From NCBI GenBank assembly GCA_000002435.2, contig CM018793.1: 64,000 nucleotides of DNA. One strand, 5' to 3'. This document shows positions 10,672 through 39,817 of the stretch, piece after piece; within the stretch, counting starts at the first letter, position 1, and every line of letters starts with the position of its first letter. Position numbers and translations under genes: made by a program. The notes beneath the pieces were generated by a model, which was not told where the DNA came from, searched no databases, and saw nothing but the letters and a program-made list of their open reading frames with translations. The stretch comes from Giardia intestinalis (taxonomy: Eukaryota).

Positions 10672-10775
10672 GTTTTATTATCCAGATAGTGTAAAGGTCC
10701 ATTCGATTTTAAATTCACTTCCCGCCCCTCAGATGCGGCCGGCGTGCGCTGTGTGTGCGGCCGGACCCGCCTGCA

Positions 10776-12218: not shown

Positions 12219-12851
12219 TCCGTGGTAGACAATATGGGCGAGCCTTCTTGGGAGTCCTGGCAACGGAGCACTTGAGCAAATGATGGTCTACGGGGATCTA
12301 TGCGCTAAAAGGAGAAATAGTTGGTCTGATCTTCCTATCGCTGCGTACAAGGAAAGCCCGCACCGTGATCTCCTCCACCAGGGGTCATCCTGTCTCATCT
12401 CCGGTGCTGTCCTTCGCCGGGCCTTCGGTGGGACACCCATGCATATCGGTCATTGCACAATATACAGTATGAATCTCTAACAATCTCTGACACATTGCAC
12501 AGCCCTACCAGCCGCCAGCTCGGCCATCCTACGGCAGAGACTCCTTAATTCGTTCTGAATTGAGAAGAGGGCCCAGGGCTACGATTAGTGTTATGCGAGC
12601 ACGAGATGCAGACCTCCTTCATCAATGCCTCTCCCTCCTGCCAGACAATGCCCTTTGTAGATACAAAATGGACGTAGATACCTGTCCAAAGATGGGGGCG
12701 TTATTCTTTACCTAAACACCACTTGTTGCTATGCCTTCGCCAGACGCACCAGCCCTAAATAGAGTCTCAGTTCTTGCTACTCAGAGCTAATGATGATTGT
12801 CCTCTGGTGCCCTCTAAAGCATTCTAGGACTCCAACATCCGCGCCTGTGAC

Positions 12852-16285: not shown

Positions 16286-16890
16286 CTGTCGCCGCAGCAG
16301 ATTTTCCCCGACGATTTTACTTTAAAATGGTACGGACTGCCTCTCTGTTGGCCGCTGGCCTCCCAGTTGCAGACTGAGAGCCAACACCGCGACCGGTATG
16401 CCTGACCTACTACCTAGTCAGTAGATACCCCTGTTCGGCAAGCAGAAGCTGTGGGGTTAGCCCTGGACAGGTCAGACTCGTTCTGTCCGTAAAGGCCCTC
16501 CGTGGCCGGCTCGTCACTTGTGGCGCCATGACTCAGACTCTGCACACGCTTATCGCACAGGGCATCCAACCCGTGCCTTCTGGGCGAGTAGTTAATGTCA
16601 AAGGCGATTATCGTGTCTTAGTGTGCCAGCGCATGACCGAGACTACCTTACAAAGTACAGTAGCGTACTGCCTAACGCTAGAAGCATGGGGCGACTTGTC
16701 CGAGAGCAGCCCATCCGTTATAGGGCCGCCCCTGTAATGGGTTCGCACAGGCCTCGGTCACCGACCACCCGAGATGTGATCTGCTCCTTGATGATTGTGT
16801 CATGTGCGAGCCTCTTTTGTATAATCCGAACACTACTTCCACTGATAACACGATCTGAGATTAAAAATTAATACTTTTAGACAGCTGTTG

Positions 16891-18927: not shown

Positions 18928-21900
18928 CGGCGCGGATCAATGTCTTCTCCTGTCTGCCTTGCTTGTATGCGTACCCAGTTTCTATCGTGCTGGGGCAATA
19001 CAGCCCTTCTCCTAGTAAACAAGGCAGAAGTATGTATGCTGGTGTCACCACGGTCGTTGACTACCTAGGGGCCGGCGACAGCTGCGAGAGCAATGGGCAC
19101 AGGAGTAGCGCATTCCGGGGCGTGATTTATCTGTCTTGCCATCTGCCGTGGTACTGTACATGACTCCGAGGATGATACAGTGTTGATCGCTGAGGTGGTT
19201 TCCAGCAAATACGTCCTTAGTTAACTTCCTCGTATCGGGCGGCGCTTCGCATGCCTGGTTCCGACGTCCGGCGCCACCCAGCTCCGGGAGCAGGAGAAGG
19301 CGGGGAAGGAGGTCGGTAGCCCGACCCTCTCACCTGCAGCAGCCTCCGGATCCGCATGCCGATAGAAACGACTCGAAGCGGGATCCGGCAGACACTTGGC
19401 GGGATGATGGTACTGCAGGCGAAGAGGGCCCTCGCGCTCGCCGCCCCAGTCGATCTCCCTACTAAAGAGCAAGCGTGTGGCGGACTTCTAAGACGGTTGC
19501 CGCTATCACTGAACCCTCTCCCCAGCTGGGCTAGTCGTCAAATGGGAAGTGGCTCATGAACGCATTATCTCGCCTTTTGAGGCCCGCCTTGCCTCTATTG
19601 TATTGTCCATGGCGCCAGGAGTTATGGAAGACACGCCTGCACCTCCTGACTGAAGAGCTTTGCCGCGGGCAAGGCACCGAACGCCGCGTCCTGGGAAGCC
19701 TCCCGCCTCAGGCTCATTCAACTGGAGTCTCATACGCCAAATAAGGCATTTCATTTCCCTTTCCACACCTCCATAGCTTACAGGCTGTGTTACATCATGC
19801 TGCACCAGATGACGCCTACGCCAACATCCCCAGGACGCTGAGAGAGATCAGAAGGCCTTCCAAGTCCTCTGGAGGCGTTTAGATGCAACTCCTAGCTCTT
19901 GCTCTTGGGAGACCTCGATAGGGATCAGCAATCGACACGTAGACTGCGAGCTATGTAATCAAGACCTGGAACAGATGGCCTTCGTTATCGACAAGACAAG
20001 AACAGGTGATGGAGCTCCGTTCTCCCCGGATCCTGTGCTCCAGAGGAGGCAGGGCTTCCAGTCACTGACTGCCCCGATAGGAGTCATGCGTCTGCTGATG
20101 CTTTGTGAGGACCGCATGGACTCCGACTCGTACCTATACACTGTGGATGCTGCTGGTCTCTCGAGGGAGATGCTCCGACACCATAGCAAGAACAGGAGCC
20201 TTAGGTGCACATGTGAGAGCTTGACACGGGACATAGAGCTAATTCAGGCCTCATTTAAGAACCTGGGGGCGTTTCACACGCTGGAGGATACCAGGATTGG
20301 GGGAGTCCCCATCATCTGTTGCCCCAAATGCTTCAGCACCAGAATGGCGAGTAGGAGACATCTGGCTAAAACGAAACACTCTGTGCTGATGTGGCACCAG
20401 ATGGTAGTCACTCGAGCATATGCTCGTTCTGCACTGAACCCACCGAGGTCAGAGAGCCGTCCAGGTGCACTGCAACACAAACATCGAGTGTAGAGCGTAA
20501 CTGCGTGAAGGGATGGGAATGAAGAGGAGAGGGACATCCTTTTCAGCACCCACCCCATAGCCATGCTCAGGGATGATAAAGACCCTTCTTATAGAACCCC
20601 AGTCAAAAGAGGCGAGAGCACCTCGTGAAGCAAATGAGGTGTGCTTTGTCAGACTGGTGGGTCGTTGATATATGAGCAACAGCCACCAGAAGGCCTCTAA
20701 CAGGGATCAGATTGTCAAGTGCGTCGAAGACGCCTTGATGAAGAACAACTGCCCTCGGGTCACGGGCTTCTCTCCTACAAGAACATTCACAACCTGGACT
20801 CTCTAGAGGGGATAAAGGTAACACGTGAGCTGCACTCTAATACCCCAAAGTGTTACCGTGGCTGGACGACAGGAGATTGTGCTGGTCACGTGGTGAGAAT
20901 CTTCATGCGAACTTCCAGCCAGATCAGACAATAGTGAGAAATAGCTAGTTTTCTCGTAGCGTGCCTCCTCTCTGAACAGGACTGGAGGTGCCTGGGATGC
21001 TCTTCTAGAGTCTCGGTATCGAAGGGTCCATGCCAAGTAGCAGACCCTGTACTGCATGGCATGAGAGCTTTTAGGACGTGTAAATACCCGTGTGGCCGTA
21101 GCGACGCGTTTCCATCCGCAGGTACCAGGGCACGTCGGTGGACAGCGTACACAGTGACTCAGGCACTCTACGTGTGGTCATGTCCTACAGTTCCTGTAGT
21201 GGGCTATGGACAGCCTGATAACCAGTGTTCTATAGCAGCGCGACGTGGGATGGTGCGCCCAGCAGCACACCACATCTATGGTCTCAACGAGGCTTTACAG
21301 GGTGCAGTAGGGCATCCGAGCCAACTGAGCATTGGACTGGGCCCTGGGTGGGAGGTAAGGGCTCCTGTGCACGACTGGGTTGCTCCCAGATAGAATAGGG
21401 TATACAGTGAGCTAGATGAATGCGATGCTGTAAGGTATCCACAGCCGCATAGATTCATCCGGTGGTGCCGCACTGGATGTTGGGAGGCACACTGCCGACA
21501 GGTCAGGGAAGCTTAAAGAGTGATAGTGCCATTTTGCTATTATTATGTAGTACTTCGGGGCATGTAGCTAGGGAGGTATCCCCTGATGGTTGGGAAAAGG
21601 GCAGAGCTAAGTGAATAATGACCATGCCCATCATGAACAGCTCTAGATGCTACCCGATCACTTTCTAGAAGTGCATATGTCTCGGATAGGTGGGAGCTAC
21701 ATTCAGGGCCATGTGCGGATAGAAGGCAGCCCAGCGACTGACGCTTTGTACAACCTCCTCATCCGCTGCCTGAGCAGCCAGAAGCCAGCTTCGATATGCA
21801 GACGGAAGCTGCGAAGAGTAAACTCATCGTGGGGTCGATTGTCTGACACTAAAAAATCCGGAACGATGACGGCAGCCATTGTCTCCCTAAGATGATGTAT

Positions 21901-24900
21901 TATGCGCGGTATCAGCTTTGGCCCTCTAGATGGGTAGTTTGGGGCATTCTGCACTAGCCTTGACTTCTGAGACGCTAAGACCTGTGAATAGCACAGAACG
22001 AGGCATGGTATGTATAGACGGTGCGTTGTCTTCATGAATGTGCACTACAGCCTCCAAATGCACGCAGCTAGACCAGAATGGACGGATCAGCTAGCTTACA
22101 CAGGCGACCTGCCCACCACCATGTTTGCTGCGATGAGGGGCTGCATCTACCCAACAGACTGAGCAGAGATTACAGCAGCTTCTCTACTGATGCATGCATG
22201 GCCATGCGCCGCCCTAGTAGGTGGTGTAGATACTATAGTATCTACCCTGCCTGTTGTTAATAAAGAATATCAGTTAGTCGCACTGGACACTCTTCTAGGA
22301 AGGCATACAGTCTCTATGGTTGCAATTTCACCAGTTGTAATGACAACTGAACACTAGGAAAGGTGCCATAGAACGATCTGCTGCCTTTCAAGGTGAGACA
22401 TAAATCCACACATAAGCCAAAAGCAGAACTCTATACATCGATTGTTATGATCTTAGTGCGATGACCGGTTTGAGCTATGATACACTCCTCACTTATCTAT
22501 GTACTCGTTTGGATCCTCGCTGCTAGTGTTGGACAGGACTGCGAGGGGGCCTGTCTCTGGTTGCGTTGACCTTATGGTATCTAGTCCTTGGTGACACACC
22601 TCAGCGGATGAGGATGTTATTCGGGTACTCAAAAGACTATCCGTGCATAACGGTTTCTGGAGAGCCGGTCCGCATGGAGAATATAGGGTGACCAGCGAAT
22701 CAGTGAAGTAAGACTGGCGTCAGAGAGGCCAGCTACTAGCCCGGATTGCAGCAGAGACGCCTGTAGCGCCTCTCTGGTCTCCGAGTGGTAAAGATCGCGG
22801 GGTCTACAGATAAGTTGAAAGCTGCTTTTTGATTTTATATATTCCTAACAGCGTAATATTTATCAGCGGCCTGCCTCGTCTGAAGTTGAAGAAGTTTACC
22901 TTCTCTCCGCATATTGGCGAGGATCTATTGTAGAGGCATGCTGTGCAGGCTGGTACCAGTCGGCGTGGTTGCTGTCCACAGATTTCTCACCTGCGTCTTC
23001 TCATGGCAGATGATCGCTAGCAGCGCTCTCAGCTCACGTGGCTAAGTCTACGGTGCATCTCCACTTCGGCCAAGGATTGTATACGTATTATATAGTCTGG
23101 ATTGCTCATCAGCCAGGATAGTGTGGTCCACTCCTGTTCTCTGCTTGCCTATCTCGTGCAACCATTTATTAATGACCTTTCCAGATCAATGGGTACTTCC
23201 ATCAGTTCTGTAAAGGCATACGTCACGCAGACGGCCACTACAAGCCAGACTCCTGTCTACCAAGGAAAAGGGTCAATAGATTTATCATCTGGGCATCCGT
23301 TATGTCCCTTATACAGATCTGGCAGGTCTTGGGCTCCTCAGCGTTTCTTCGTAAGTCTCTGGCTGAAGCCCGTATGCATATCGTTACTGACAAGCGCCTT
23401 AGCTTCATCTGACCACTTAGGGCATTAGATCCTTTGCCCTGCACAGTGGGTATGCTCAGCGTGGGAGGTACACAACCAGCATCAGCTTTCTCGGCTCATT
23501 GTCTGAGTAATACTGTCATTGCTTCTCAATTTAACTAGCAACTCAACTAATGGTCTCAAAAGCAGATAACAACTCACCAGCAGGTAGTCAGCAGTGACCG
23601 TGACGCGTACTTTCGCTAAGGCGCAGACTTCTAAGCAGGAGCATGAGGTAGGCCTCTGCCATTCTGTGGTCCTGTTAATTCCTCGGATAGTAAAGATTGG
23701 AACAGCTCAGGCTAGCATTGGATGCATCCGGGTCTCTATCTATCTCCGTCGTCTGGAGTGTGTTTGACTTCATAAACTGAAAGGAGCTGTACCGTGCTCG
23801 TGCCTGCAAGCCTCAGCTAGGCAGAGCTATATCTCAGTTGTTGCGTGGGGGTAGCCACACGCCCCGCAGAGCCTGCAAGGAACATTGTGGCCCAATAGAG
23901 CCTTTTACCTATCGAATGCAAGCTGTGACCTCATAGGCGCAGGCTTTCTTATAGTAACCAGTCAGCTACAGAGTTCGTCCACTCGTATAAACCCAACGGA
24001 TGGAGGGCGATATCAGTCTCGTCGATCGTCTACAACGCACAGCAGTCGAGTCCTACAGGTGGACAGAGGTCATCCAGCCCGCATCAATAAACATCGATAG
24101 GAAGCCTTCACAACAATGAATGAGTGAGTACAGTAGCCATTTTTCTATTGAAGATTCTCCAACCACTGAGGTCCAGGACAGCCTCCTACAGGATTCTTGG
24201 CAGGATCGTATCCGATGCATGTTTGTGGCACTCCCGCTCAAGGTGTGTGTTGCTAGACTTTCACTTCCTACACTGGCCTGTGAACATTGAGCTCTGGGCT
24301 CTAGCGGGGCCATGCTGGAGATCACAAGGATATGGTGTCTTCGGAGACTATTCGGCTTCCGTAGCCACACAATAAGGATCTACTTCTCGCAGTAGCATCA
24401 CAGAGAGGTGTATAGAACCATACCACGCCCTCTACCAGGTGACATGATGCATGAATCAAGAGGTAGGACGCTTGCACCGATCGGCATATCTACCATGATC
24501 AGACACAGATTGGCCCGAAAGTAGCAGCTAAATGTTGTTCGACTCCCTTATCAGTGGATGGGCACCCAACTACCCTGGTACCCACACGAGGCCACGCTGA
24601 GTATGGGCCTGGTCACTGGCTATCAAACCAGCACAGTCCCTCTGGATCTCGTCTCTCATGAAGACAGCCTAACACAGAGAGCTCTGTGTCACTCACATCA
24701 ACAGACCAAGGTACCGCAGGCCTGGGTGCTTCTGGTACGATAGAGCGGTAGCATCAGAGTAATTCAAGGGGTGATGGGAGTCCTCTCCATCAGCTCAGGA
24801 GACAGCACGGTCTGGGCAGTGCTTCCCCTTGACTAGACACGGGAGGGCTGACCCGTCTCTGAGTTCTACTTGCCACTCTGTCATGCAATGAAGAACCCTA

Positions 24901-25350
24901 ATGGTACTTAGTACAGGGGGCCAGTAGTAACGCCATGCATCCACCAGATCAGAGTGCCCCATGAGCCTGTCTCTGTTGATCCACACCTTCTACGAACTTT
25001 AGTGACTGATGCAATCTTCTCTCGAGATCCTCCGAGGATTTGTCTCTGAGTGTAACTCCCCCACGACAGCTAAGGGTCACGGGCATAACCGAAGGACGAG
25101 AGCGATCCAGGGGGAGAGCACCGGCGCATGGGGTCCGCAGGGGCCGGTTCCCAGGGATGCAAGGACGGCAGATCGCTTGCTGTCTAAGCAGTAATTAGAT
25201 CCATGTTTTGTCATGACGGCAAGGTTGGCACCGGATCAAGTTCTTTGGATCTTTAACACAATATCTGACAAATGCATTGTTCTATTGGCTGAACATAGGA
25301 TTGCTGACAAAATTTTGTTTCCGCATTGGCATAACCCGAACAGAACTTCA

Positions 25351-27234
25351 ATGTTGTTGGTAGTATTCTATCTTGTGTTGAGTGCTCTCGCGGCAGCATG
25401 CAAGCAAGCACAAAATTGTGTAGAGGATAAGTGCGAAATGATCGGAGACACCGAAATTTGCACTCAGTGCACAGCAGGAAAAGTCCCAATTGATGGAGTA
25501 TGTACAGCAGTTGGTAGTGCCGCTGGTAAATGTACAAAGGCTGAAGGACAAGCAGTAGATGACACTGATAAAACATGTGGAAAATGCGTAGACGCATACT
25601 TCATGTACAAAGGCGGATGTTATCTGGCCGGTGCAGCTGGACCGGGTACTGGTACTAAAATGTGCAAGCAGGCTGCTGGTGGCAAGTGTACGCAAGCTGC
25701 TGATGCGAAGAACTACTTCATTCCACCAGCAAATACAGACGATACTCATGATTCTGTCGTTTGGTGCGGTGATGAAATAGGCGTAACACTTAGTAGTACT
25801 CAGTATAAGGGTGTTGCTAAGTGCCTAGTATGTGATGCTCCCGGTGGCGCTGGTGCTGCAACGTGCACAACCTGTGAAGACGGGTACTTTGGTGCTACTT
25901 GTGAAAAATGCCATGAAAGTTGTAGGACATGTGAAGCTGCAGAAGAGAATAAGTGCAAGTCGTGTACAGATGGCTACTTCCTTGGAGCAACCAATGGAGC
26001 CGCAGGTAAGTGCCTTAAATGTAACTCTAAAACAGAGGAAGGCTGGCACGGAGTTGACAACTGTGCTAAGTGCACGTCATCTAATACGCAAAACACTCCT
26101 GCGACATGCACTGAATGCGTTGCAAATTTCTATCTAAAACCAGCTGCGGATGCGACTCCTTCTAGTTGCGTCACAGAAACGGGGTGCGGTGACGGATACT
26201 TCCCAACTATTGTTGATGAGGTCAAGAAATGTATCGCTTGCAGTGCAGCTACAAATGGTGGCATAGATGACTGCAAAAAGTGTTCTCTCAAAACAACGTC
26301 TGCGAAGGCAGGAGTAGAGATCGTATGCACTGAATGTAATACTAAATGGCTCAGTCCTCTAAGAGACGCATGTTTGGATAGCTGTCCTCCTGGAACACAT
26401 GCTGATTCTGGCAATATTTGTCCTTTATGTCATAGTACATGTGCAGAATGTGATGGTAATGCAGGAGCCAACTTTTGTACAGTTTGTTATCCAGGGTTTG
26501 TATTAAAGCGCGGTGAAACTGGCAACATGGGCATGTGCGTTCCCGAGTGCACTGGAGAGTACGCAGAGAACTGCGAAGCTGACCAATGCACGGCCGTTAT
26601 AGGTAGCTCCAAGTATTGCAGCAGGTGTAAGGTTGGATTTGCCCCAGTGGATGGCGTCTGTGTATCGACGGCTTCAAGAGCAGTAACTGGATGCACAGCA
26701 GGAAACGATGGGACATGTACGGCCTGCACAGGTACATATTTCTTACAATCTGGTGGGTGCTATCAGTCAACAACGTATCCTGGTAATACCCTCTGCTCTA
26801 TCGCTGCTAGTGGAAAGTGCACAACATGCGCCAATGGGCAAACAGCAGATAGCAATTTGGGTTCTTGCCCAGCATGTCCAGCTGGCTGCTCAAAGTGCGC
26901 AACTAGTGGTAGTCCCAAAGCATGCTCAGAGTGTTTCCCTGGATACTATAAATCTGGGGATAGCTGCGCAAGATGCGATACTAATAACAGCCAAATTACC
27001 GGTGTCGCTAATTGCGTAAGCTGTGCTCCTCCATCTAATGGTCAAGGATCTGTCATCTGCTACATAACGCGACAAGAGACCGACGATGGCACTGGCGACA
27101 ACACAGGTGGAAGCACGAACAAGAGCGGCCTCTCCACGGGTGCCATCGCGGGGATCTCCGTGGCTGTGATTGTTGTTGTAGGTGGCCTCGTCGGCTTCCT
27201 CTGCTGGTGGTTTATCTGCCGTGGAAAGGCGTAG
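25351..27234 (+). CDS. variant-specific surface protein (VSP), copy 1
   Basis: N-terminal MLLVVFYLVLSALAAA signal, numerous CxxC motifs, GGCY motifs, C-terminal TM and invariant CRGKA-stop. The in-frame upstream ATG at 25213 is probably not used. Confidence 0.9.
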   Translation: MLLVVFYLVLSALAAACKQAQNCVEDKCEMIGDTEICTQCTAGKVPIDGVCTAVGSAAGKCTKAEGQAVDDTDKTCGKCVDAYFMYKGGCYLAGAAGPGTGTKMCKQAAGGKCTQAADAKNYFIPPANTDDTHDSVVWCGDEIGVTLSSTQYKGVAKCLVCDAPGGAGAATCTTCEDGYFGATCEKCHESCRTCEAAEENKCKSCTDGYFLGATNGAAGKCLKCNSKTEEGWHGVDNCAKCTSSNTQNTPATCTECVANFYLKPAADATPSSCVTETGCGDGYFPTIVDEVKKCIACSAATNGGIDDCKKCSLKTTSAKAGVEIVCTECNTKWLSPLRDACLDSCPPGTHADSGNICPLCHSTCAECDGNAGANFCTVCYPGFVLKRGETGNMGMCVPECTGEYAENCEADQCTAVIGSSKYCSRCKVGFAPVDGVCVSTASRAVTGCTAGNDGTCTACTGTYFLQSGGCYQSTTYPGNTLCSIAASGKCTTCANGQTADSNLGSCPACPAGCSKCATSGSPKACSECFPGYYKSGDSCARCDTNNSQITGVANCVSCAPPSNGQGSVICYITRQETDDGTGDNTGGSTNKSGLSTGAIAGISVAVIVVVGGLVGFLCWWFICRGKA

Positions 27235-27242
27235 ACTTAGGT

Positions 27243-27249
27243 AGTAAAC
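27243..27249 (+). terminator. Giardia-type polyadenylation signal AGTAAAC (AGTRAAY) 9 nt after the VSP stop codon
   Basis: tag(27232-27234) ...gt AGTAAAC a. The AGTRAAY consensus is established for Giardia 3' end formation. Confidence 0.6.
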
Positions 27250-27694
27250 ACGTCACTGTATATGGCTTATTACGCTATTCTGCCGGGGCTATCTGAGGAT
27301 CGCCCAGAGATCGTGTGAGTGAGTCCGCTCCTTTCTGACTAGTCCGGAGACGAGGGTTGGTCATGAATAACATGACGGAGAGTCCTCTCCAGTGATATAT
27401 CCAGAGCCTGGTGCGCTCCTCTGCCATTTCGCGGGGGTGTACTCAATCCGAGTGTGTGCGTCACTCACCCTGGGATTCAGCTTACCTATCCATTTGCATC
27501 GTCCACCAGTGGCGCCTCTCGTTGGTCTTCCTTCGTGGTGGGTGAAGCTCCGGTCGCCGTCCTTTTTTAGATGCCCCGTCTGTCAGGGGCTGCCACCGGG
27601 CTCTCCGCTGGCTGGGCCCTCGGTGTCCGGGCAGCTGTGGCTCGAGTCAGCGCTCCCACAGTCCAGTCACCTGTGTCTCAGTGGGCCGGCTGGT

Positions 27695-27715
27695 GGGTGG
27701 GGCGGGGGTATGGGG
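27695..27715 (+). other. canonical G-quadruplex motif G3-T-G4-C-G5-TAT-G4 at the inner end of the left arm
   Basis: Sequence gggtggggcgggggtatgggg read directly. Lies ~5 bp from the arm/spacer junction. Confidence 0.6.
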
Positions 27716-27718
27716 CGG

Positions 27719-29419
27719 TGAGGCTGGAGGGGACTGGTGGGACCAGGTGGTGGGTGTTCGTATGCGCCCCTGACCTTTTAGTGGACTGGGGTGATCCCCG
27801 CTCTGTTTGCCAAGGTGGTTGTGTCTGATCTTCAACCATCGTTGCACTCCCGAGACAGAGGCACCGACGATCGTGTCGTGTCCCCCTGAGTGAGCGCCTC
27901 CCTTGGCCCCTGCATGCCTCGGGCAGTACTGCTCTGTCTGGCTGGTGCATGAGGGCTGAGGCAGACCATCGCAGCCTCTCCTGTTGCTCGCTGATGCTCT
28001 GTGACGGGTCTGCTGGGCCCCTGGCATGCCCTGTCCGGTGCCTCGACGATAGTTCACCTCGGGCCAGCAGGGGTGTGGATGACCTTGTGAATGGGATGGG
28101 GTTCTCTCATGCCTCTAGTGTGATGACTCAAAAGACTAACACGGTGGGGCATCGGTGACTGCACTGTCCCCGTGGTCAGCTGTGCTGCTCCTGGTGGGTC
28201 CTTGTTGTGGAGCGCTGTGTATCATCCATAGGCAGAGGTGAGCCTCCTTGGTCTCAGGATGCTCTACCATCAGAGAGGAGCACGCTGGGGGTCACCCAAC
28301 ATCACCTGCTGTGCCCTCGGGAGTTCCCGGTGTGGTCTACTAACCTTAACACCTCTCGTGGCTCTGATGACCCCTCGGGGAGAGCCGGGGTGTCCTATGC
28401 CAGGGAGGCGTGCACCTTCCTGCATGAGCTGGGCCATCCACTGCACTGCCCCCAAGGAGGTCTGCTATGAGAGGCAGTGGGATGATTGACAGCCCCTCAG
28501 AGTGGGTGGAGGGCGCTCGTGGTCGTCTCTGTGACCGGGCATCACTCTGATAGTCGGCTCTGTGCCTGCGTGGTGCTCAGAGGTCACCTGTCTGCCTCAT
28601 TGCCTGCTGGACAGCCGGCCTCTTGTGTCATCCGAAGGCCTCCTCACTCCTCTGGCTGCTGCCCCCTCGGGTCATCGATGGAGACCAGCGGAGTCTTCGG
28701 TGGGTCTGGTGCCTGTCTGGGTGTCATGGGGGCTGGCAGCTATCAGGGCTCTGCCACTGCTCACCTGCCTGGAGTGTGCCTCCCTTGGGTCTGCTGTGCT
28801 GTAGTGTTTGAGTCCTCTGGTTTCCTATCAGGCCCTGGTTGTGAGGGTGACCCCACCTGGCCCTCTGATGTCCCTGTGGATGAGCATAGCAGCTGTCTGG
28901 CTGGGGATCTCTGGTGCCCGTGGCTGTTGCTGCCTCTCGGGTGCTCGGGTGGTTGCCTGGCACTCTCGTATGGGACACAGTCAGCGTGTCCCGAGCAGAC
29001 CCTAGTCCTCTCTGGGTCATGCACAGTCTGTCCGTGTGTGGATGGTCCTCCTGCACTCAGGTCCATCTGTGCATACTATCACTCAGCCTCGAGAGCAGGC
29101 CAGTGCCAGTTACTAGGGCTGCTGTCAGAGGGAGTCGTCTGCCACTACCATCGCTCGAGCAGCCCTGCAGATCAGGCTGGTTGCTGTGCACCCTCATGGC
29201 AGGGCTGCCTGACTCCCTTGGTCATCCTCTCTGTCCCGGTGTGCACGGCTCCTGAGGGTTGCCTGGGTGGAGGCACTCACAGACCACGAGCACACAGAGG
29301 GATGAGTCACAGGTAGACAGCCCCCAGTCACCACAGCTGCGATCACCCCAGTTCACCGGACCCAGGGGCACATACGAGCACCACCAACCTCAGCCCCCAC
29401 CAGAGCCCCTCCAGTCCCA
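27719..29419. other. unique ~1.7-kb GC-rich spacer between inverted arms. Low-complexity, no credible gene
   Basis: Not self-complementary around centre 28569. Overlapping Cys/Gly/Pro/Ser-rich pseudo-ORFs on both strands. Confidence 0.6.
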
Positions 29420-29422
29420 CCG

Positions 29423-29443
29423 CCCCATACCCCCGCCCCACCC
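29423..29443 (-). other. mirror G-quadruplex motif (C-rich on + strand) at the inner end of the right arm
   Basis: Sequence ccccatacccccgccccaccc on the + strand. Confidence 0.6.
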
Positions 29444-29888
29444 ACCAGCCGGCCCACTGAGACACAGGTGACTGGACTGTGGGAGCGCTGACTCGAGCCA
29501 CAGCTGCCCGGACACCGAGGGCCCAGCCAGCGGAGAGCCCGGTGGCAGCCCCTGACAGACGGGGCATCTAAAAAAGGACGGCGACCGGAGCTTCACCCAC
29601 CACGAAGGAAGACCAACGAGAGGCGCCACTGGTGGACGATGCAAATGGATAGGTAAGCTGAATCCCAGGGTGAGTGACGCACACACTCGGATTGAGTACA
29701 CCCCCGCGAAATGGCAGAGGAGCGCACCAGGCTCTGGATATATCACTGGAGAGGACTCTCCGTCATGTTATTCATGACCAACCCTCGTCTCCGGACTAGT
29801 CAGAAAGGAGCGGACTCACTCACACGATCTCTGGGCGATCCTCAGATAGCCCCGGCAGAATAGCGTAATAAGCCATATACAGTGACGT

Positions 29889-29895
29889 GTTTACT
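29889..29895 (-). terminator. poly(A) signal AGTAAAC for VSP copy 2
   Basis: Mirror of 27243-27249. Confidence 0.6.
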
Positions 29896-29903
29896 ACCTA
29901 AGT

Positions 29904-31787
29904 CTACGCCTTTCCACGGCAGATAAACCACCAGCAGAGGAAGCCGACGAGGCCACCTACAACAACAATCACAGCCACGGAGATCCCCGCGATGGCACCC
30001 GTGGAGAGGCCGCTCTTGTTCGTGCTTCCACCTGTGTTGTCGCCAGTGCCATCGTCGGTCTCTTGTCGCGTTATGTAGCAGATGACAGATCCTTGACCAT
30101 TAGATGGAGGAGCACAGCTTACGCAATTAGCGACACCGGTAATTTGGCTGTTATTAGTATCGCATCTTGCGCAGCTATCCCCAGATTTATAGTATCCAGG
30201 GAAACACTCTGAGCATGCTTTGGGACTACCACTAGTTGCGCACTTTGAGCAGCCAGCTGGACATGCTGGGCAAGAACCCAAATTGCTATCTGCTGTTTGC
30301 CCATTGGCGCATGTTGTGCACTTTCCACTAGCAGCGATAGAGCAGAGGGTATTACCAGGATACGTTGTTGACTGATAGCACCCACCAGATTGTAAGAAAT
30401 ATGTACCTGTGCAGGCCGTACATGTCCCATCGTTTCCTGCTGTGCATCCAGTTACTGCTCTTGAAGCCGTCGATACACAGACGCCATCCACTGGGGCAAA
30501 TCCAACCTTACACCTGCTGCAATACTTGGAGCTACCTATAACGGCCGTGCATTGGTCAGCTTCGCAGTTCTCTGCGTACTCTCCAGTGCACTCGGGAACG
30601 CACATGCCCATGTTGCCAGTTTCACCGCGCTTTAATACAAACCCTGGATAACAAACTGTACAAAAGTTGGCTCCTGCATTACCATCACATTCTGCACATG
30701 TACTATGACATAAAGGACAAATATTGCCAGAATCAGCATGTGTTCCAGGAGGACAGCTATCCAAACATGCGTCTCTTAGAGGACTGAGCCATTTAGTATT
30801 ACATTCAGTGCATACGATCTCTACTCCTGCCTTCGCAGACGTTGTTTTGAGAGAACACTTTTTGCAGTCATCTATGCCACCATTTGTAGCTGCACTGCAA
30901 GCGATACATTTCTTGACCTCATCAACAATAGTTGGGAAGTATCCGTCACCGCACCCCGTTTCTGTGACGCAACTAGAAGGAGTCGCATCCGCAGCTGGTT
31001 TTAGATAGAAATTTGCAACGCATTCAGTGCATGTCGCAGGAGTGTTTTGCGTATTAGATGACGTGCACTTAGCACAGTTGTCAACTCCGTGCCAGCCTTC
31101 CTCTGTTTTAGAGTTACATTTAAGGCACTTACCTGCGGCTCCATTGGTTGCTCCAAGGAAGTAGCCATCTGTACACGACTTGCACTTATTCTCTTCTGCA
31201 GCTTCACATGTCCTACAACTTTCATGGCATTTTTCACAAGTAGCACCAAAGTACCCGTCTTCACAGGTTGTGCACGTTGCAGCACCAGCGCCACCGGGAG
31301 CATCACATACTAGGCACTTAGCAACACCCTTATACTGAGTACTACTAAGTGTTACGCCTATTTCATCACCGCACCAAACGACAGAATCATGAGTATCGTC
31401 TGTATTTGCTGGTGGAATGAAGTAGTTCTTCGCATCAGCAGCTTGCGTACACTTGCCACCAGCAGCCTGCTTGCACATTTTAGTACCAGTACCCGGTCCA
31501 GCTGCACCGGCCAGATAACATCCGCCTTTGTACATGAAGTATGCGTCTACGCATTTTCCACATGTTTTATCAGTGTCATCTACTGCTTGTCCTTCAGCCT
31601 TTGTACATTTACCAGCGGCACTACCAACTGCTGTACATACTCCATCAATTGGGACTTTTCCTGCTGTGCACTGAGTGCAAATTTCGGTGTCTCCGATCAT
31701 TTCGCACTTATCCTCTACACAATTTTGTGCTTGCTTGCATGCTGCCGCGAGAGCACTCAACACAAGATAGAATACTACCAACAACAT
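29904..31787 (-). CDS. variant-specific surface protein (VSP), copy 2, identical to copy 1 and convergent with it
   Basis: Identical 673/627-aa translation. The two stop codons are 2.67 kb apart, tail-to-tail. Confidence 0.9.
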   Translation of the reverse strand: MLLVVFYLVLSALAAACKQAQNCVEDKCEMIGDTEICTQCTAGKVPIDGVCTAVGSAAGKCTKAEGQAVDDTDKTCGKCVDAYFMYKGGCYLAGAAGPGTGTKMCKQAAGGKCTQAADAKNYFIPPANTDDTHDSVVWCGDEIGVTLSSTQYKGVAKCLVCDAPGGAGAATCTTCEDGYFGATCEKCHESCRTCEAAEENKCKSCTDGYFLGATNGAAGKCLKCNSKTEEGWHGVDNCAKCTSSNTQNTPATCTECVANFYLKPAADATPSSCVTETGCGDGYFPTIVDEVKKCIACSAATNGGIDDCKKCSLKTTSAKAGVEIVCTECNTKWLSPLRDACLDSCPPGTHADSGNICPLCHSTCAECDGNAGANFCTVCYPGFVLKRGETGNMGMCVPECTGEYAENCEADQCTAVIGSSKYCSRCKVGFAPVDGVCVSTASRAVTGCTAGNDGTCTACTGTYFLQSGGCYQSTTYPGNTLCSIAASGKCTTCANGQTADSNLGSCPACPAGCSKCATSGSPKACSECFPGYYKSGDSCARCDTNNSQITGVANCVSCAPPSNGQGSVICYITRQETDDGTGDNTGGSTNKSGLSTGAIAGISVAVIVVVGGLVGFLCWWFICRGKA

Positions 31788-34700
31788 TGAAGTTCTGTTC
31801 GGGTTATGCCAATGCGGAAACAAAATTTTGTCAGCAATCCTATGTTCAGCCAATAGAACAATGCATTTGTCAGATATTGTGTTAAAGATCCAAAGAACTT
31901 GATCCGGTGCCAACCTTGCCGTCATGACAAAACATGGATCTAATTACTGCTTAGACAGCAAGCGATCTGCCGTCCTTGCATCCCTGGGAACCGGCCCCTG
32001 CGGACCCCATGCGCCGGTGCTCTCCCCCTGGATCGCTCTCGTCCTTCGGTTATGCCCGTGACCCTTAGCTGTCGTGGGGGAGTTACACTCAGAGACAAAT
32101 CCTCGGAGGATCTCGAGAGAAGATTGCATCAGTCACTAAAGTTCGTAGAAGGTGTGGATCAACAGAGACAGGCTCATGGGGCACTCTGATCTGGTGGATG
32201 CATGGCGTTACTACTGGCCCCCTGTACTAAGTACCATTAGGGTTCTTCATTGCATGACAGAGTGGCAAGTAGAACTCAGAGACGGGTCAGCCCTCCCGTG
32301 TCTAGTCAAGGGGAAGCACTGCCCAGACCGTGCTGTCTCCTGAGCTGATGGAGAGGACTCCCATCACCCCTTGAATTACTCTGATGCTACCGCTCTATCG
32401 TACCAGAAGCACCCAGGCCTGCGGTACCTTGGTCTGTTGATGTGAGTGACACAGAGCTCTCTGTGTTAGGCTGTCTTCATGAGAGACGAGATCCAGAGGG
32501 ACTGTGCTGGTTTGATAGCCAGTGACCAGGCCCATACTCAGCGTGGCCTCGTGTGGGTACCAGGGTAGTTGGGTGCCCATCCACTGATAAGGGAGTCGAA
32601 CAACATTTAGCTGCTACTTTCGGGCCAATCTGTGTCTGATCATGGTAGATATGCCGATCGGTGCAAGCGTCCTACCTCTTGATTCATGCATCATGTCACC
32701 TGGTAGAGGGCGTGGTATGGTTCTATACACCTCTCTGTGATGCTACTGCGAGAAGTAGATCCTTATTGTGTGGCTACGGAAGCCGAATAGTCTCCGAAGA
32801 CACCATATCCTTGTGATCTCCAGCATGGCCCCGCTAGAGCCCAGAGCTCAATGTTCACAGGCCAGTGTAGGAAGTGAAAGTCTAGCAACACACACCTTGA
32901 GCGGGAGTGCCACAAACATGCATCGGATACGATCCTGCCAAGAATCCTGTAGGAGGCTGTCCTGGACCTCAGTGGTTGGAGAATCTTCAATAGAAAAATG
33001 GCTACTGTACTCACTCATTCATTGTTGTGAAGGCTTCCTATCGATGTTTATTGATGCGGGCTGGATGACCTCTGTCCACCTGTAGGACTCGACTGCTGTG
33101 CGTTGTAGACGATCGACGAGACTGATATCGCCCTCCATCCGTTGGGTTTATACGAGTGGACGAACTCTGTAGCTGACTGGTTACTATAAGAAAGCCTGCG
33201 CCTATGAGGTCACAGCTTGCATTCGATAGGTAAAAGGCTCTATTGGGCCACAATGTTCCTTGCAGGCTCTGCGGGGCGTGTGGCTACCCCCACGCAACAA
33301 CTGAGATATAGCTCTGCCTAGCTGAGGCTTGCAGGCACGAGCACGGTACAGCTCCTTTCAGTTTATGAAGTCAAACACACTCCAGACGACGGAGATAGAT
33401 AGAGACCCGGATGCATCCAATGCTAGCCTGAGCTGTTCCAATCTTTACTATCCGAGGAATTAACAGGACCACAGAATGGCAGAGGCCTACCTCATGCTCC
33501 TGCTTAGAAGTCTGCGCCTTAGCGAAAGTACGCGTCACGGTCACTGCTGACTACCTGCTGGTGAGTTGTTATCTGCTTTTGAGACCATTAGTTGAGTTGC
33601 TAGTTAAATTGAGAAGCAATGACAGTATTACTCAGACAATGAGCCGAGAAAGCTGATGCTGGTTGTGTACCTCCCACGCTGAGCATACCCACTGTGCAGG
33701 GCAAAGGATCTAATGCCCTAAGTGGTCAGATGAAGCTAAGGCGCTTGTCAGTAACGATATGCATACGGGCTTCAGCCAGAGACTTACGAAGAAACGCTGA
33801 GGAGCCCAAGACCTGCCAGATCTGTATAAGGGACATAACGGATGCCCAGATGATAAATCTATTGACCCTTTTCCTTGGTAGACAGGAGTCTGGCTTGTAG
33901 TGGCCGTCTGCGTGACGTATGCCTTTACAGAACTGATGGAAGTACCCATTGATCTGGAAAGGTCATTAATAAATGGTTGCACGAGATAGGCAAGCAGAGA
34001 ACAGGAGTGGACCACACTATCCTGGCTGATGAGCAATCCAGACTATATAATACGTATACAATCCTTGGCCGAAGTGGAGATGCACCGTAGACTTAGCCAC
34101 GTGAGCTGAGAGCGCTGCTAGCGATCATCTGCCATGAGAAGACGCAGGTGAGAAATCTGTGGACAGCAACCACGCCGACTGGTACCAGCCTGCACAGCAT
34201 GCCTCTACAATAGATCCTCGCCAATATGCGGAGAGAAGGTAAACTTCTTCAACTTCAGACGAGGCAGGCCGCTGATAAATATTACGCTGTTAGGAATATA
34301 TAAAATCAAAAAGCAGCTTTCAACTTATCTGTAGACCCCGCGATCTTTACCACTCGGAGACCAGAGAGGCGCTACAGGCGTCTCTGCTGCAATCCGGGCT
34401 AGTAGCTGGCCTCTCTGACGCCAGTCTTACTTCACTGATTCGCTGGTCACCCTATATTCTCCATGCGGACCGGCTCTCCAGAAACCGTTATGCACGGATA
34501 GTCTTTTGAGTACCCGAATAACATCCTCATCCGCTGAGGTGTGTCACCAAGGACTAGATACCATAAGGTCAACGCAACCAGAGACAGGCCCCCTCGCAGT
34601 CCTGTCCAACACTAGCAGCGAGGATCCAAACGAGTACATAGATAAGTGAGGAGTGTATCATAGCTCAAACCGGTCATCGCACTAAGATCATAACAATCGA

Positions 34701-37700
34701 TGTATAGAGTTCTGCTTTTGGCTTATGTGTGGATTTATGTCTCACCTTGAAAGGCAGCAGATCGTTCTATGGCACCTTTCCTAGTGTTCAGTTGTCATTA
34801 CAACTGGTGAAATTGCAACCATAGAGACTGTATGCCTTCCTAGAAGAGTGTCCAGTGCGACTAACTGATATTCTTTATTAACAACAGGCAGGGTAGATAC
34901 TATAGTATCTACACCACCTACTAGGGCGGCGCATGGCCATGCATGCATCAGTAGAGAAGCTGCTGTAATCTCTGCTCAGTCTGTTGGGTAGATGCAGCCC
35001 CTCATCGCAGCAAACATGGTGGTGGGCAGGTCGCCTGTGTAAGCTAGCTGATCCGTCCATTCTGGTCTAGCTGCGTGCATTTGGAGGCTGTAGTGCACAT
35101 TCATGAAGACAACGCACCGTCTATACATACCATGCCTCGTTCTGTGCTATTCACAGGTCTTAGCGTCTCAGAAGTCAAGGCTAGTGCAGAATGCCCCAAA
35201 CTACCCATCTAGAGGGCCAAAGCTGATACCGCGCATAATACATCATCTTAGGGAGACAATGGCTGCCGTCATTGTTCCGGATTTTTTAGTGTCAGACAAT
35301 CGACCCCACGATGAGTTTACTCTTCGCAGCTTCCGTCTGCATATCGAAGCTGGCTTCTGGCTGCTCAGGCAGCGGATGAGGAGGTTGTACAAAGCGTCAG
35401 TCGCTGGGCTGCCTTCTATCCGCACATGGCCCTGAATGTAGCTCCCACCTATCCGAGACATATGCACTTCTAGAAAGTGATCGGGTAGCATCTAGAGCTG
35501 TTCATGATGGGCATGGTCATTATTCACTTAGCTCTGCCCTTTTCCCAACCATCAGGGGATACCTCCCTAGCTACATGCCCCGAAGTACTACATAATAATA
35601 GCAAAATGGCACTATCACTCTTTAAGCTTCCCTGACCTGTCGGCAGTGTGCCTCCCAACATCCAGTGCGGCACCACCGGATGAATCTATGCGGCTGTGGA
35701 TACCTTACAGCATCGCATTCATCTAGCTCACTGTATACCCTATTCTATCTGGGAGCAACCCAGTCGTGCACAGGAGCCCTTACCTCCCACCCAGGGCCCA
35801 GTCCAATGCTCAGTTGGCTCGGATGCCCTACTGCACCCTGTAAAGCCTCGTTGAGACCATAGATGTGGTGTGCTGCTGGGCGCACCATCCCACGTCGCGC
35901 TGCTATAGAACACTGGTTATCAGGCTGTCCATAGCCCACTACAGGAACTGTAGGACATGACCACACGTAGAGTGCCTGAGTCACTGTGTACGCTGTCCAC
36001 CGACGTGCCCTGGTACCTGCGGATGGAAACGCGTCGCTACGGCCACACGGGTATTTACACGTCCTAAAAGCTCTCATGCCATGCAGTACAGGGTCTGCTA
36101 CTTGGCATGGACCCTTCGATACCGAGACTCTAGAAGAGCATCCCAGGCACCTCCAGTCCTGTTCAGAGAGGAGGCACGCTACGAGAAAACTAGCTATTTC
36201 TCACTATTGTCTGATCTGGCTGGAAGTTCGCATGAAGATTCTCACCACGTGACCAGCACAATCTCCTGTCGTCCAGCCACGGTAACACTTTGGGGTATTA
36301 GAGTGCAGCTCACGTGTTACCTTTATCCCCTCTAGAGAGTCCAGGTTGTGAATGTTCTTGTAGGAGAGAAGCCCGTGACCCGAGGGCAGTTGTTCTTCAT
36401 CAAGGCGTCTTCGACGCACTTGACAATCTGATCCCTGTTAGAGGCCTTCTGGTGGCTGTTGCTCATATATCAACGACCCACCAGTCTGACAAAGCACACC
36501 TCATTTGCTTCACGAGGTGCTCTCGCCTCTTTTGACTGGGGTTCTATAAGAAGGGTCTTTATCATCCCTGAGCATGGCTATGGGGTGGGTGCTGAAAAGG
36601 ATGTCCCTCTCCTCTTCATTCCCATCCCTTCACGCAGTTACGCTCTACACTCGATGTTTGTGTTGCAGTGCACCTGGACGGCTCTCTGACCTCGGTGGGT
36701 TCAGTGCAGAACGAGCATATGCTCGAGTGACTACCATCTGGTGCCACATCAGCACAGAGTGTTTCGTTTTAGCCAGATGTCTCCTACTCGCCATTCTGGT
36801 GCTGAAGCATTTGGGGCAACAGATGATGGGGACTCCCCCAATCCTGGTATCCTCCAGCGTGTGAAACGCCCCCAGGTTCTTAAATGAGGCCTGAATTAGC
36901 TCTATGTCCCGTGTCAAGCTCTCACATGTGCACCTAAGGCTCCTGTTCTTGCTATGGTGTCGGAGCATCTCCCTCGAGAGACCAGCAGCATCCACAGTGT
37001 ATAGGTACGAGTCGGAGTCCATGCGGTCCTCACAAAGCATCAGCAGACGCATGACTCCTATCGGGGCAGTCAGTGACTGGAAGCCCTGCCTCCTCTGGAG
37101 CACAGGATCCGGGGAGAACGGAGCTCCATCACCTGTTCTTGTCTTGTCGATAACGAAGGCCATCTGTTCCAGGTCTTGATTACATAGCTCGCAGTCTACG
37201 TGTCGATTGCTGATCCCTATCGAGGTCTCCCAAGAGCAAGAGCTAGGAGTTGCATCTAAACGCCTCCAGAGGACTTGGAAGGCCTTCTGATCTCTCTCAG
37301 CGTCCTGGGGATGTTGGCGTAGGCGTCATCTGGTGCAGCATGATGTAACACAGCCTGTAAGCTATGGAGGTGTGGAAAGGGAAATGAAATGCCTTATTTG
37401 GCGTATGAGACTCCAGTTGAATGAGCCTGAGGCGGGAGGCTTCCCAGGACGCGGCGTTCGGTGCCTTGCCCGCGGCAAAGCTCTTCAGTCAGGAGGTGCA
37501 GGCGTGTCTTCCATAACTCCTGGCGCCATGGACAATACAATAGAGGCAAGGCGGGCCTCAAAAGGCGAGATAATGCGTTCATGAGCCACTTCCCATTTGA
37601 CGACTAGCCCAGCTGGGGAGAGGGTTCAGTGATAGCGGCAACCGTCTTAGAAGTCCGCCACACGCTTGCTCTTTAGTAGGGAGATCGACTGGGGCGGCGA

Positions 37701-37837
37701 GCGCGAGGGCCCTCTTCGCCTGCAGTACCATCATCCCGCCAAGTGTCTGCCGGATCCCGCTTCGAGTCGTTTCTATCGGCATGCGGATCCGGAGGCTGCT
37801 GCAGGTGAGAGGGTCGGGTATCAGGTCGCCGCGGAAA

Positions 37838-39817
37838 ATGGAAAGTGAATGTAAAAAATTACACATGGAGCCTCAAAGATTGTCCTTAGAGACATGGATT
37901 TTTCAGTTAGAGCAAGGGTATGATGAAGATCTTGCTAGTGTAGCACCAGAATATGTCAAGGCCAAAGGAGCTTCCGGGGAATCTAGCTTTTTACTCGCCT
38001 CTAACATGCGCGCATTTCGAGCTTTGAAATGCCTTCTTACTGCTCCACAGACTGCTCTATCACAAGATGAGCTAGAAACTATTCTCCGTACTACTATTTT
38101 CGAGGTGAATAATCGACTTGCCTTCAATTGTCTTCGTATTGTACTTGAGATAATAACTAACCAGGCTGAAGAACATGGAATCACTCTTCACTCGCATACT
38201 AGCGTACTGCAGGCACTCAAGATGGCAGAGACGCATGGGAACTATCGGGCGATGTTCTACCTTGCTTCCATTTTGGATGATGCACCTGCACTACTTCGAT
38301 ATTCCTATCTGTTCACAAAAGACCCACTGAGCTTACCAGTTCTTAAAAACTATGACTCAAAAGCCCAGTCTGTAGAGAAGGCTGAGGATCATCTCAACAA
38401 TTCTAAGTATCTCGCTAACGTACTTGAAAAGCTAGAACAGCCCGAGGATACTTCTACTGCCTATCAGCTTTCTCTTATTAATAGTGTATTATCGTTTTTG
38501 CAATCTATAATTGCGTGTCAGCAACCTTCTACCATATTCCCCAGAGTTGAAGAAGCCATTCATCAGCTACTGCAACGTGATTTGCCCGACACCCTAGGAA
38601 GAACCATCTTCTCTATAGTCTTATATTGCATACAAAGCCTGCATAAACGAGATAATATAGATAATAGTCAAATCACCACTACTAGCAACATCATGGATCC
38701 CCATATTTCCGTTGATACATTGCTTCAGTCTGACTCATTAAAAGATCAGCCATTCTCATGCACTGAGTCCTTCATCAATAAGAGAAGAGATGACAAGGGC
38801 ATCTTGTCTTACATAAAGACCCTTAACACTAAAATCTATACACATGAAGCAGAAATTCTACAATTACGGAAACAACTGGAGACGGTTAGATATAGACACC
38901 GGGAAGAGGCCGAGATCAATGGAAAGTTAAATACAGCCCTTTCTGAACAGTTAAAAGAGGAGATAGACAGGGCCATGATGCTGGAAAAGCAATCGTTGGA
39001 GAAAGATAAGGTGATTTTATCTATGCGTGAACTCTTAAAAGGCTGGATGAGGAACTTAAATACAGTACAGAGTAATGCAGATAGTAAAGCTAGTTGTGAA
39101 CTACTTCAAGATGGCAAGAATCTGTTGGGATACAATAGTGATGAGTTATTCGGCACCGGTACTAGTTTGAAGGAAAGTGCTGTGTTAGCAGAGAAGTACA
39201 TTGACTCTATGACGAGTAATCTTGCAGGTATTAACGATTCGCTGAAGAAACTTGACAATGAGAAGCAGTCCCTCTCTATGATGCAGAAGCACGTTCTTGG
39301 TCTGGAATATGAACAGGAGCAAATACTGAACAATAGAGATGACCTTAATACAGAGCTACTTGAAGCGGAGCTACGACACTATAGAAGGCTCTATTTCAGT
39401 CTAAAGGCACACTATGAAGCGATGGTAAACCTTTTACCAGGGGACGCAGCTGAATTGGCGAGCGATGTCCTAAATAACTTAATATTAGAAGGTAATGAAA
39501 GACATCTGGAATATTCTAGAGGTAGCAAAGACACTAGTGTTGAGCCGAGCGATGAACTAGGAGCATCTGGTCAATTATTTATGGATTGCAACTCTGCATG
39601 GAACGAACAAAACTCCACGTGGCGTAGATACATGAGTGATGGCGAATACCAACGCTATGTTGAACGTGCCGTGACTCCAACGGGCCTGTCCACAATCTTC
39701 CGGCATCAGACTGCGCCCGGCCCAGATTCTAAATCTGCCCAAATCCGGCCTTGGAGTGCAGTACTGCGTGGAGAGAACAAGGAAAGGAATAAAAGCGCTT
39801 CCAAAAGCTTCCACTGA
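37838..39817 (+). CDS. hypothetical coiled-coil protein (~660 aa)
   Basis: Long ORF. The first ATG lying outside the duplicated arm is MESECKK at 37838; the supplied ORF start at 37781 is inside the repeat. No domain recognised. Confidence 0.55.
   Translation: MESECKKLHMEPQRLSLETWIFQLEQGYDEDLASVAPEYVKAKGASGESSFLLASNMRAFRALKCLLTAPQTALSQDELETILRTTIFEVNNRLAFNCLRIVLEIITNQAEEHGITLHSHTSVLQALKMAETHGNYRAMFYLASILDDAPALLRYSYLFTKDPLSLPVLKNYDSKAQSVEKAEDHLNNSKYLANVLEKLEQPEDTSTAYQLSLINSVLSFLQSIIACQQPSTIFPRVEEAIHQLLQRDLPDTLGRTIFSIVLYCIQSLHKRDNIDNSQITTTSNIMDPHISVDTLLQSDSLKDQPFSCTESFINKRRDDKGILSYIKTLNTKIYTHEAEILQLRKQLETVRYRHREEAEINGKLNTALSEQLKEEIDRAMMLEKQSLEKDKVILSMRELLKGWMRNLNTVQSNADSKASCELLQDGKNLLGYNSDELFGTGTSLKESAVLAEKYIDSMTSNLAGINDSLKKLDNEKQSLSMMQKHVLGLEYEQEQILNNRDDLNTELLEAELRHYRRLYFSLKAHYEAMVNLLPGDAAELASDVLNNLILEGNERHLEYSRGSKDTSVEPSDELGASGQLFMDCNSAWNEQNSTWRRYMSDGEYQRYVERAVTPTGLSTIFRHQTAPGPDSKSAQIRPWSAVLRGENKERNKSASKSFH

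Follow-up and report, generated by a model that had tools for sequence, protein, structure and literature searches.

Analysis of a 64,000-nucleotide stretch of the Giardia intestinalis genome (contig CM018793.1; hereafter the window) revealed a palindrome that carries two identical, convergent genes for a variant-specific surface protein (VSP), and whose nearly perfect arm identity stops inside the strongest candidate G-quadruplex (G4) sequence of the 64 kb. The near-perfect identity of the arms reflects later homogenisation of an older structure. We tentatively propose, at somewhat less than even chances, that the G-prone tract sets where the arm-to-arm copying that keeps the arms identical starts or stops.

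The inner edge of the palindrome arms

Comparison of the two arms base by base showed 8400 of 8401 positions matching, with the sole mismatch at 21865 (opposite 35273). That mismatch shows two separate arm sequences rather than a copied consensus. Moving inward, the first mismatches of the left arm lie at 27721 and 27723, placing the end of perfect identity at 27720/29418; a repeat-finding boundary of 27732/29406 differs from this position because both mismatches were tolerated. The outer edge of the arms is sharp, with neither a degenerate extension nor microhomology at the outer junction. It falls 38 bp inside an open reading frame (ORF) of 678 aa (37781-39817), leaving the left arm with a 38-bp 5' fragment of that gene (19320; 37781-37818).

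The initial annotation held that arm identity ends just past a G4 motif, which is correct for perfect identity but not for similarity, as inverted similarity continues to about 27845/29290. Over these ~125 bp, the two degenerate zones are identical at 91 of 117 ungapped columns, with six indels (~73-78% identity), and their local alignment score of 42 compares with 15.2 +/- 2.7 in shuffled sequence (z=10) and a maximum of 16 for other parts of the spacer; blastn separately extended the inverted match to 27805/29332. Because significant inverted similarity runs on beyond it in this way, 27720/29418 is the edge of a homogenised zone within an older, slightly larger palindrome, not the original duplication breakpoint, and the identity of the arms is far above what the age of the structure, judged from the adjacent zone, would lead one to expect. 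Identity per 30 columns past the edge drops from ~100% to 73, 73, 73, 57 and 53%, a step without a gradient, implying either that the edge is discrete and stable or that the junction is a hybrid. Both diverged copies of the G-rich sequence keep 55-57% G.

The motif at this edge, GGGTGGGGCGGGGGTATGGGG, consists of G runs of three, four, five and four separated by loops of T, C and TAT (1, 1 and 3 nt), and is a canonical G4 motif, defined here as four or more runs of at least three G with loops of 1-7 nt. As the initial annotation had reported, the motif and its mirror are exact reverse complements, and perfect identity stops 5 bp inward of them. Its further description of a G4 at both inner breakpoints is accurate in that a motif is present at each edge, but it counts one observation twice, because the motif sits inside the duplicated arm. 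The entire motif is within the identical zone, and in each arm the edge falls 3' of it on the G strand. The edge itself falls within a G-rich tract of ~75 nt rather than at the end of that tract; the G content of the left tract is 66% outside the identity edge and 55% inside it. A 17-nt direct repeat within the tract (27683-27699 and 27740-27756, 82% identical and 57 bp apart) has one copy on either side of the edge and may be left over from an ancient tandem duplication of the tract.

Such motifs were not equally frequent nearby when the window was scored as background for the junction. G4Hunter gave 2.56 for the junction tract and 1.72 for the runner-up region, with values above 1.75 in the two junction tracts only, and a canonical scan of the 64 kb found two independent G4 motifs, each present twice since both lie in the arms. 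The second of these, GGGCCCTGGGTGGGAGGTAAGGG at 21339-21361 and 35777-35799, has a G4Hunter score below 1.5 and lies inside the arms, away from all boundaries. When sequences were dinucleotide-shuffled, none of 100 shuffles of the unique part of the window reached a G4Hunter score of at least 2.56, and ~1% did so for the GC-rich half of the inter-ORF DNA. Folding with RNA-parameterised G4 energy terms, which is indicative only, gave -29 kcal/mol with G-quadruplexes and -8 without. A full-text search of the Giardia literature for G-quadruplex returned telomere G4 work only and nothing tying G4 to VSP pairs, and the parts of Adam 2010, Xu 2020 and a 2022 bioRxiv preprint by Rodriguez-Walker et al. 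(10.1101/2022.03.07.483299) that were covered here say nothing of a G4 where the flanks diverge or of a degenerate extension of the palindrome. A G4 at the divergence point of a VSP pair appears to be undescribed.

The single-copy spacer measures 1673 bp between the perfect arms and ~1444 bp between the degenerate zones. No inverted similarity was found between the halves of its core (27846-29289), nor were tandem or notable internal repeats found there. AT skew is strongly negative (to about -0.5) on the + strand throughout the core, yielding a stop-poor ORF of 276 aa (28486-29316) without homologues. The inter-ORF region gave no VSP, protein-family or RNA-family signal: an Rfam scan of 27000-30100 returned zero matches, and six concatenated inter-ORF ORFs (27392-29746, 812 aa) matched nothing at E<=0.001 among hypothetical-protein paralogues. 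The spacer is named a 'VSP like region' in the 2022 preprint, but a VSP pseudogene found no support: when 126 VSP-family proteins were used in tblastn and the six-frame translation was searched with a custom VSP hidden Markov model, the best E values were only ~0.006-0.2.

Table 1. Coordinates of the palindrome and its parts, as positions in the window
Feature	Coordinates	Strand	Remarks
Left arm (homogenised zone, 8401 nt)	19320..27720	+	Reverse complement of 29418-37818, one mismatch
Right arm (homogenised zone)	29418..37818	-	Outer part 36015-37291 syntenic with single-copy right flank of the P15 orthologue
VSP copy 1	25351..27234	+	627 aa, CRGKA tail; one gene of GL50803_00137714/0011470 = vsp53 / VSP-S1
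VSP copy 2	29904..31787	-	Identical to copy 1, convergent (tail-to-tail), mirror of copy 1
Left 3' flank inside arm, 486 nt	27235..27720	+	Starts with VSP polyadenylation signal ACTTAGGTAGTAAAC
Right 3' flank inside arm	29418..29903	-	Mirror of 27235-27720
Four-tract G4 motif GGGTGGGGCGGGGGTATGGGG	27695..27715	+	Sense strand of VSP copy 1, 461 nt past stop
Mirror G4 motif	29423..29443	-	G-rich on - strand, which is sense for VSP copy 2; exact reverse complement of 27695-27715
Whole G-rich tract (G4Hunter >=1.5)	27680..27753	+	Straddles identity edge 27720/27721
Mirror G-rich tract	29383..29458	-	Straddles edge 29417/29418
Left degenerate palindromic zone (old, not homogenised)	27721..27845	+	Aligns to reverse complement of 29290-29417
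Right degenerate palindromic zone	29290..29417	-	Inverted counterpart of 27721-27845
Asymmetric single-copy core of inter-ORF module	27846..29289		~1.44 kb, ~60% GC, T>>A on + strand

The vsp53 pair, its family and its relatives in other lineages

The window is Giardia DNA, and by translation its ORF pair encodes a 627-aa VSP with the C-terminal sequence CRGKA, which matched Pfam PF03302 (E=3.7e-85) and was 100% identical to KAE8305191/KAE8305192, annotated as 'VSP with INR' and located on a contig of 4.02 Mb from the WB isolate. Table 5 of Adam et al. 2010 (PMC2996952) lists a tail-to-tail vsp53 pair with 3' divergence 486 nt past the stop and 2670 bp between ORFs, and Table 2 of Xu et al. 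2020 (PMC7000408) lists 137714/11470 on chr5 in convergent orientation (-> <-), with 627 aa and 2669 bp. The corresponding values in the window, 486 nt (27720-27234) and an inter-ORF distance of 2669 bp, agree with these entries, indicating that the locus is the vsp53 pair. It is thus an already catalogued tail-to-tail VSP pair of WB chr5, with a divergence point in print since 2010. The locus has the features of the class of identical inverted tail-to-tail pairs in Giardia: two identical convergent VSP ORFs with CRGKA tails, a noncoding gap of 2-4 kb and abrupt divergence of the flanks within 139-729 bp of the coding region. Just beyond the left arm lies a cysteine-rich ORF of 679 aa (16888-18927) that probably encodes a protein of the high-cysteine membrane type; it matches the VSP Pfam family weakly (E=2.7e-15) and does not resemble the paired VSP at the DNA level.

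Published data place this pair in a family. In Table 5 of Adam 2010 (PMC2996952), divergence lies 486-559 nt past the stop in seven of nine tail-to-tail pairs and at 318 and 354 nt in the remaining pairs, with ORFs 2.4-3.2 kb apart; to the authors of that paper, the occurrence of such pairs was 'an interesting, but cryptic observation'. The 2022 preprint (10.1101/2022.03.07.483299) puts the number of identical VSP pairs in WB at 20, and where the three sources treat such pairs (PMC2996952; PMC7000408; 10.1101/2022.03.07.483299) all of them are inverted. The S4 table of the preprint assigns the intergenic region of the vsp53 pair to a cluster, *5, of 'very similar' intergenic regions that also holds those of about seven other pairs, including vsp1267, on several chromosomes, and places four more pairs in a second intergenic cluster, *3. 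The sharing of the intergenic region among ~8 pairs is a statement of that literature, the window covering one pair.

The nearest assemblage E homologue, from isolate P15 (contig ACVC01000129, 65% aa identity), showed that inverted repeats at this locus are not confined to WB. In P15 a single VSP (10001-11911) lies between 3-kb inverted repeats of VSP upstream DNA (6833-9860 and 11938-14934), the right one beginning 27 bp past the VSP stop. This geometry could permit inversion of the gene, or could be the product of a central deletion in a tail-to-tail palindrome. The identity of the P15 repeats is a mosaic with sharp steps, from ~70% in the outer 750 bp to 91-100% over 2.4 kb and then 63%, indicating episodic homogenisation at the locus. 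The P15 right flank is collinear with the WB right arm at 36015-37291, and the genes of the P15 left flank (pseudouridine synthase and inositol-1-phosphate synthase) are absent from the window, indicating a synteny break at the left edge of the palindrome; the WB left arm therefore duplicates, as the mirror of 36015-37291, DNA that is single-copy right flank in P15. No homologue of the WB 3' flank or core was found at the P15 locus. The inner ends of the P15 repeats lie within 20-290 bp of G-rich tracts (G4Hunter 1.92 and 1.68); these tracts, the inner one included, are homologous to WB VSP upstream DNA and not to the WB junction tract.

Two ENA metagenome contigs from another Giardia lineage, L007 and L008 (ERZ28528424, ERZ19219916), carry a VSP 62% identical to the WB copy followed by a noncoding 3' flank (L007 2584-2955, L008 2362-2552) that is 75-80% identical to WB 27235-27607. 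In this lineage the flank is about as conserved as the coding region. The longer contig, L007, ends 88 bp before the G4 position, and the comparison thus covers the flank short of the junction; its k-mer coverage is 31.6, and that of a single-copy contig of 67 kb from its sample is 22.5. Compared with relatives in other lineages, identity is 71-80% for the VSP and its flank. The P15 repeats and the L007/L008 flank together indicate that both the inverted repeats at the locus and the association of VSP and flank predate the split of the lineages, and with the reportedly shared intergenic regions they indicate that the palindrome is old and a member of a family.

Several other loci were set aside. 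Neither a head-to-head pair of P15 (L002) nor two single-VSP loci (L009 and L010) qualify as inverted identical pairs; all that L002 and L009 have in common with the WB locus is the ~20-nt polyadenylation signal, and L010 gave no match. When JGI metagenome contigs were scanned with a VSP alignment, four loci came back, matching in the transmembrane tail only, and none of them was a usable Giardia locus.

Proposed arm-to-arm copying and competing explanations

In the mechanism that we propose, a dispersed intergenic module of ~2.67 kb, composed of the 486-nt 3' flank, the ~125-nt degenerate inverted zone and the ~1.44-kb asymmetric core, would separate the two VSP copies, and the arms would be held ~99.99% identical by gene conversion or by break-induced or template-switch synthesis off the partner arm. 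The 3' side of the G-rich strand is where a polymerase copying that strand would be expected to halt. A 3' end left there by such stalling or by a break would use the older inverted homology to pair with the partner arm, and synthesis would then run outward, crossing the G4 motif, the flank and the VSP and continuing further. We infer that the G4 tract is causal for the edge and that copying proceeds outward.

Several aspects of the locus fit this mechanism. The junction motif is the highest G4Hunter peak of the 64 kb and is seldom equalled in local shuffles, the mosaic of the P15 repeats shows that homogenisation here has been episodic, and G4 DNA is able to initiate fold-back copying in yeast (PMC4256205). 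The anatomy of nearly perfect arms, a step to ~73% and then loss of similarity is expected if partner-arm copying starts or stops at a fixed point in an older inverted repeat. The position of the motif inside the identical zone, with the edge 3' of the G strand, fits outward copying, as a barrier met from the arm side would exclude the motif. Finally, the left-arm copy of DNA that is single-copy in P15, the abrupt outer edge and the missing P15 left-flank genes fit outward copying over long tracts. The existence of ~20 identical pairs, together with the reported sharing of the intergenic region, favours recurrent or ongoing copying between arms over one founding accident.

A number of considerations weigh against this proposal. 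The coincidence of G4 and edge is a single, post hoc observation at one locus, and formation of a quadruplex by the junction tract is predicted. The partner arm offers a template that is also the G-rich strand, such that switching gives no obvious bypass, and pairing through a zone as diverged as the degenerate one would be inefficient. The account of Giardia antigenic switching given in PMC2996952 describes it as epigenetic, not recombinational. The initial annotation had looked to the breakpoints of other isolates, and here the outcome is divided: the inner ends of the P15 repeats lie in VSP upstream DNA and shortly past the stop, not at the WB motif, but they do lie near different G-rich tracts. 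Finally, the inter-ORF DNA is locally 60-69% GC, and some canonical G4 motif appears in ~20% of local shuffles.

The last point also supports coincidence or hitch-hiking, an explanation that we consider possible if somewhat unlikely. Here the G-rich tract would merely be part of a GC-rich dispersed region and not causal, and the edge would be the limit of usable homology or would reflect inheritance from a founder. Because the intergenic region is reportedly common to ~8 pairs, the arrangement could indeed be inherited rather than repeatedly made, and the ~125 bp of degraded homology inside the edge is roughly the size at which conversion, which needs flanking homology, should fail. Arguing in the other direction, a motif as strong as this one occurs in the ~1% of local shuffles given above and lies within 5 bp of the edge, for a joint chance on the order of 1e-3 or less (calculated post hoc); divergence should rise gradually if conversion had an edge effect, whereas a step was observed; and G-richness has survived in both diverged copies.

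The initial annotation viewed the placement of the G4 as a footprint of how the palindrome arose. In its strict form, a single G4-triggered fork stall or break followed by a fold-back template switch would have made the palindrome de novo, with 27720/29418 as the footprint, which we regard as improbable. The rare, strong motif at the edge, the edge position at the 3' side of the G strand, the near-identity of the arms and the abrupt outer edge all agree with such an event, as does a spacer within the range of fold-back loops, with inverted homology at spacer ends as in human cases (PMC3907307), and G4-started fold-back is on record in yeast (PMC4256205). What this origin does not accommodate is the age of the structure: a like intergenic region is reported between ~8 different VSP pairs, the flank is conserved beside the more diverged VSP of another lineage, and the orthologous VSP of assemblage E is already surrounded by inverted repeats. 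A separate recent origin for each of the ~20 WB pairs, all with identical copies, would also be unparsimonious. The footprint idea is thus only partly supported, as regards the motif, its polarity and the spacer size, but not as regards the older palindrome, its family and the P15 repeats.

A role in transcription is quite improbable as the explanation of the edge. The G-rich tract would in this case act on the non-template strand as a pause, terminator or R-loop site that limits read-through into the antisense of the partner, and the position of the edge would be secondary. Downstream of both genes it is the sense strand that is rich in G, the G-richness of the tract survives ~27% divergence in both copies, and read-through of convergent identical genes would be expected to give antisense or double-stranded RNA. 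Against this, the tract lies 461 nt past the stop whereas the VSP polyadenylation signal directly abuts the stop, symmetry by itself gives sense-strand polarity on both sides, and the region is without an RNA-family match.

It is hardly credible that long-read assembly or polishing made the arms identical or created the palindrome, although near-perfect inverted repeats of 8.4 kb are a known chimeric product of long reads. Duplicated VSPs were once doubted as artefacts, according to a passage of the 2022 preprint (10.1101/2022.03.07.483299), but independent assemblies agree on the distances, the Sanger-based assembly giving 486 nt and 2670 bp in the 2010 table (PMC2996952) and the PacBio and optical-map assembly giving 2669 bp in the 2020 table (PMC7000408), and both the one-base difference between arms and the asymmetric centre argue against an artefact.

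Comparison with known recombination systems

Extending the proposal of arm-to-arm copying from this locus to the family, G4-prone tracts at the inner ends of inverted VSP pairs might be cis-acting start sites of recurrent arm-to-arm copying, a generalisation that we consider unlikely. If true, it would account both for the identity found in every inverted pair and for the abrupt divergence ~0.5 kb past the stop in tail-to-tail pairs. The hypothesis bears on how ~20 antigen-gene palindromes, making up ~30% of the WB VSP repertoire, stay identical. The parts of the literature covered here offer no explanation for the abrupt flank divergence of inverted VSP pairs, and a G4 of fitting polarity provides a concrete and testable proposal. 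Should the coincidence fail to recur at other pairs, it would be a minor curiosity at a known locus.

A structural parallel is provided by fold-back inverted duplications. In humans these have spacers of 766-70,466 bp, flanked by Alu or L1 pairs that are 82-95% identical and yield a hybrid repeat (Hermetz et al. 2014, PMC3907307), and in yeast transcribed G4 DNA starts such duplications (Yadav et al. 2014, PMC4256205). The WB locus resembles the duplications of these two studies in its inverted arms, kilobase-size single-copy spacer, inverted homology at the spacer ends, hybrid junction and G4-forming sequence at the junction (PMC3907307, PMC4256205). In contrast, each of those duplications is a single recent event that accompanies a terminal deletion or secondary rearrangement, whereas the WB locus is interstitial, old and stably inherited, with an intergenic region reportedly present at ~8 loci.

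For the maintenance of identity, a parallel is offered by the ampliconic palindromes of the human Y chromosome, which are reportedly kept identical by arm-to-arm gene conversion (Rozen et al. 2003). The WB arms are like theirs in being kilobases long and >99.9% identical around a unique spacer, in a structure older than the divergence of its arms suggests. Unlike the Y palindromes, with arms of tens to hundreds of kb, the WB palindrome has arms of 8.4 kb that carry surface-antigen genes in a tetraploid protist. We know of no G4 implicated at the edges of the human Y palindromes.

G4-associated recombination at antigen families is found in Neisseria at pilE (PMC13463697, PMC3547852), in Borrelia at vls (PMC3585125) and in Plasmodium at var (PMC5093961). 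In these systems a G4-forming motif neighbours a variant surface-antigen gene at a point where conversion-like copying begins or ends. As in pilE-type systems, the G4 motif of the WB locus lies in cis, downstream of each VSP copy and at the edge of the copied tract. The direction of the outcome differs, since recombination in Neisseria, Borrelia and Plasmodium diversifies the expressed antigen whereas copying within the Giardia pair would erase differences between the two copies. If G4-prone tracts do start such copying, Giardia would join the theme of G4-associated recombination at antigen families, with a eukaryotic counterpart of the pilE G4 that serves concerted evolution instead of diversification.

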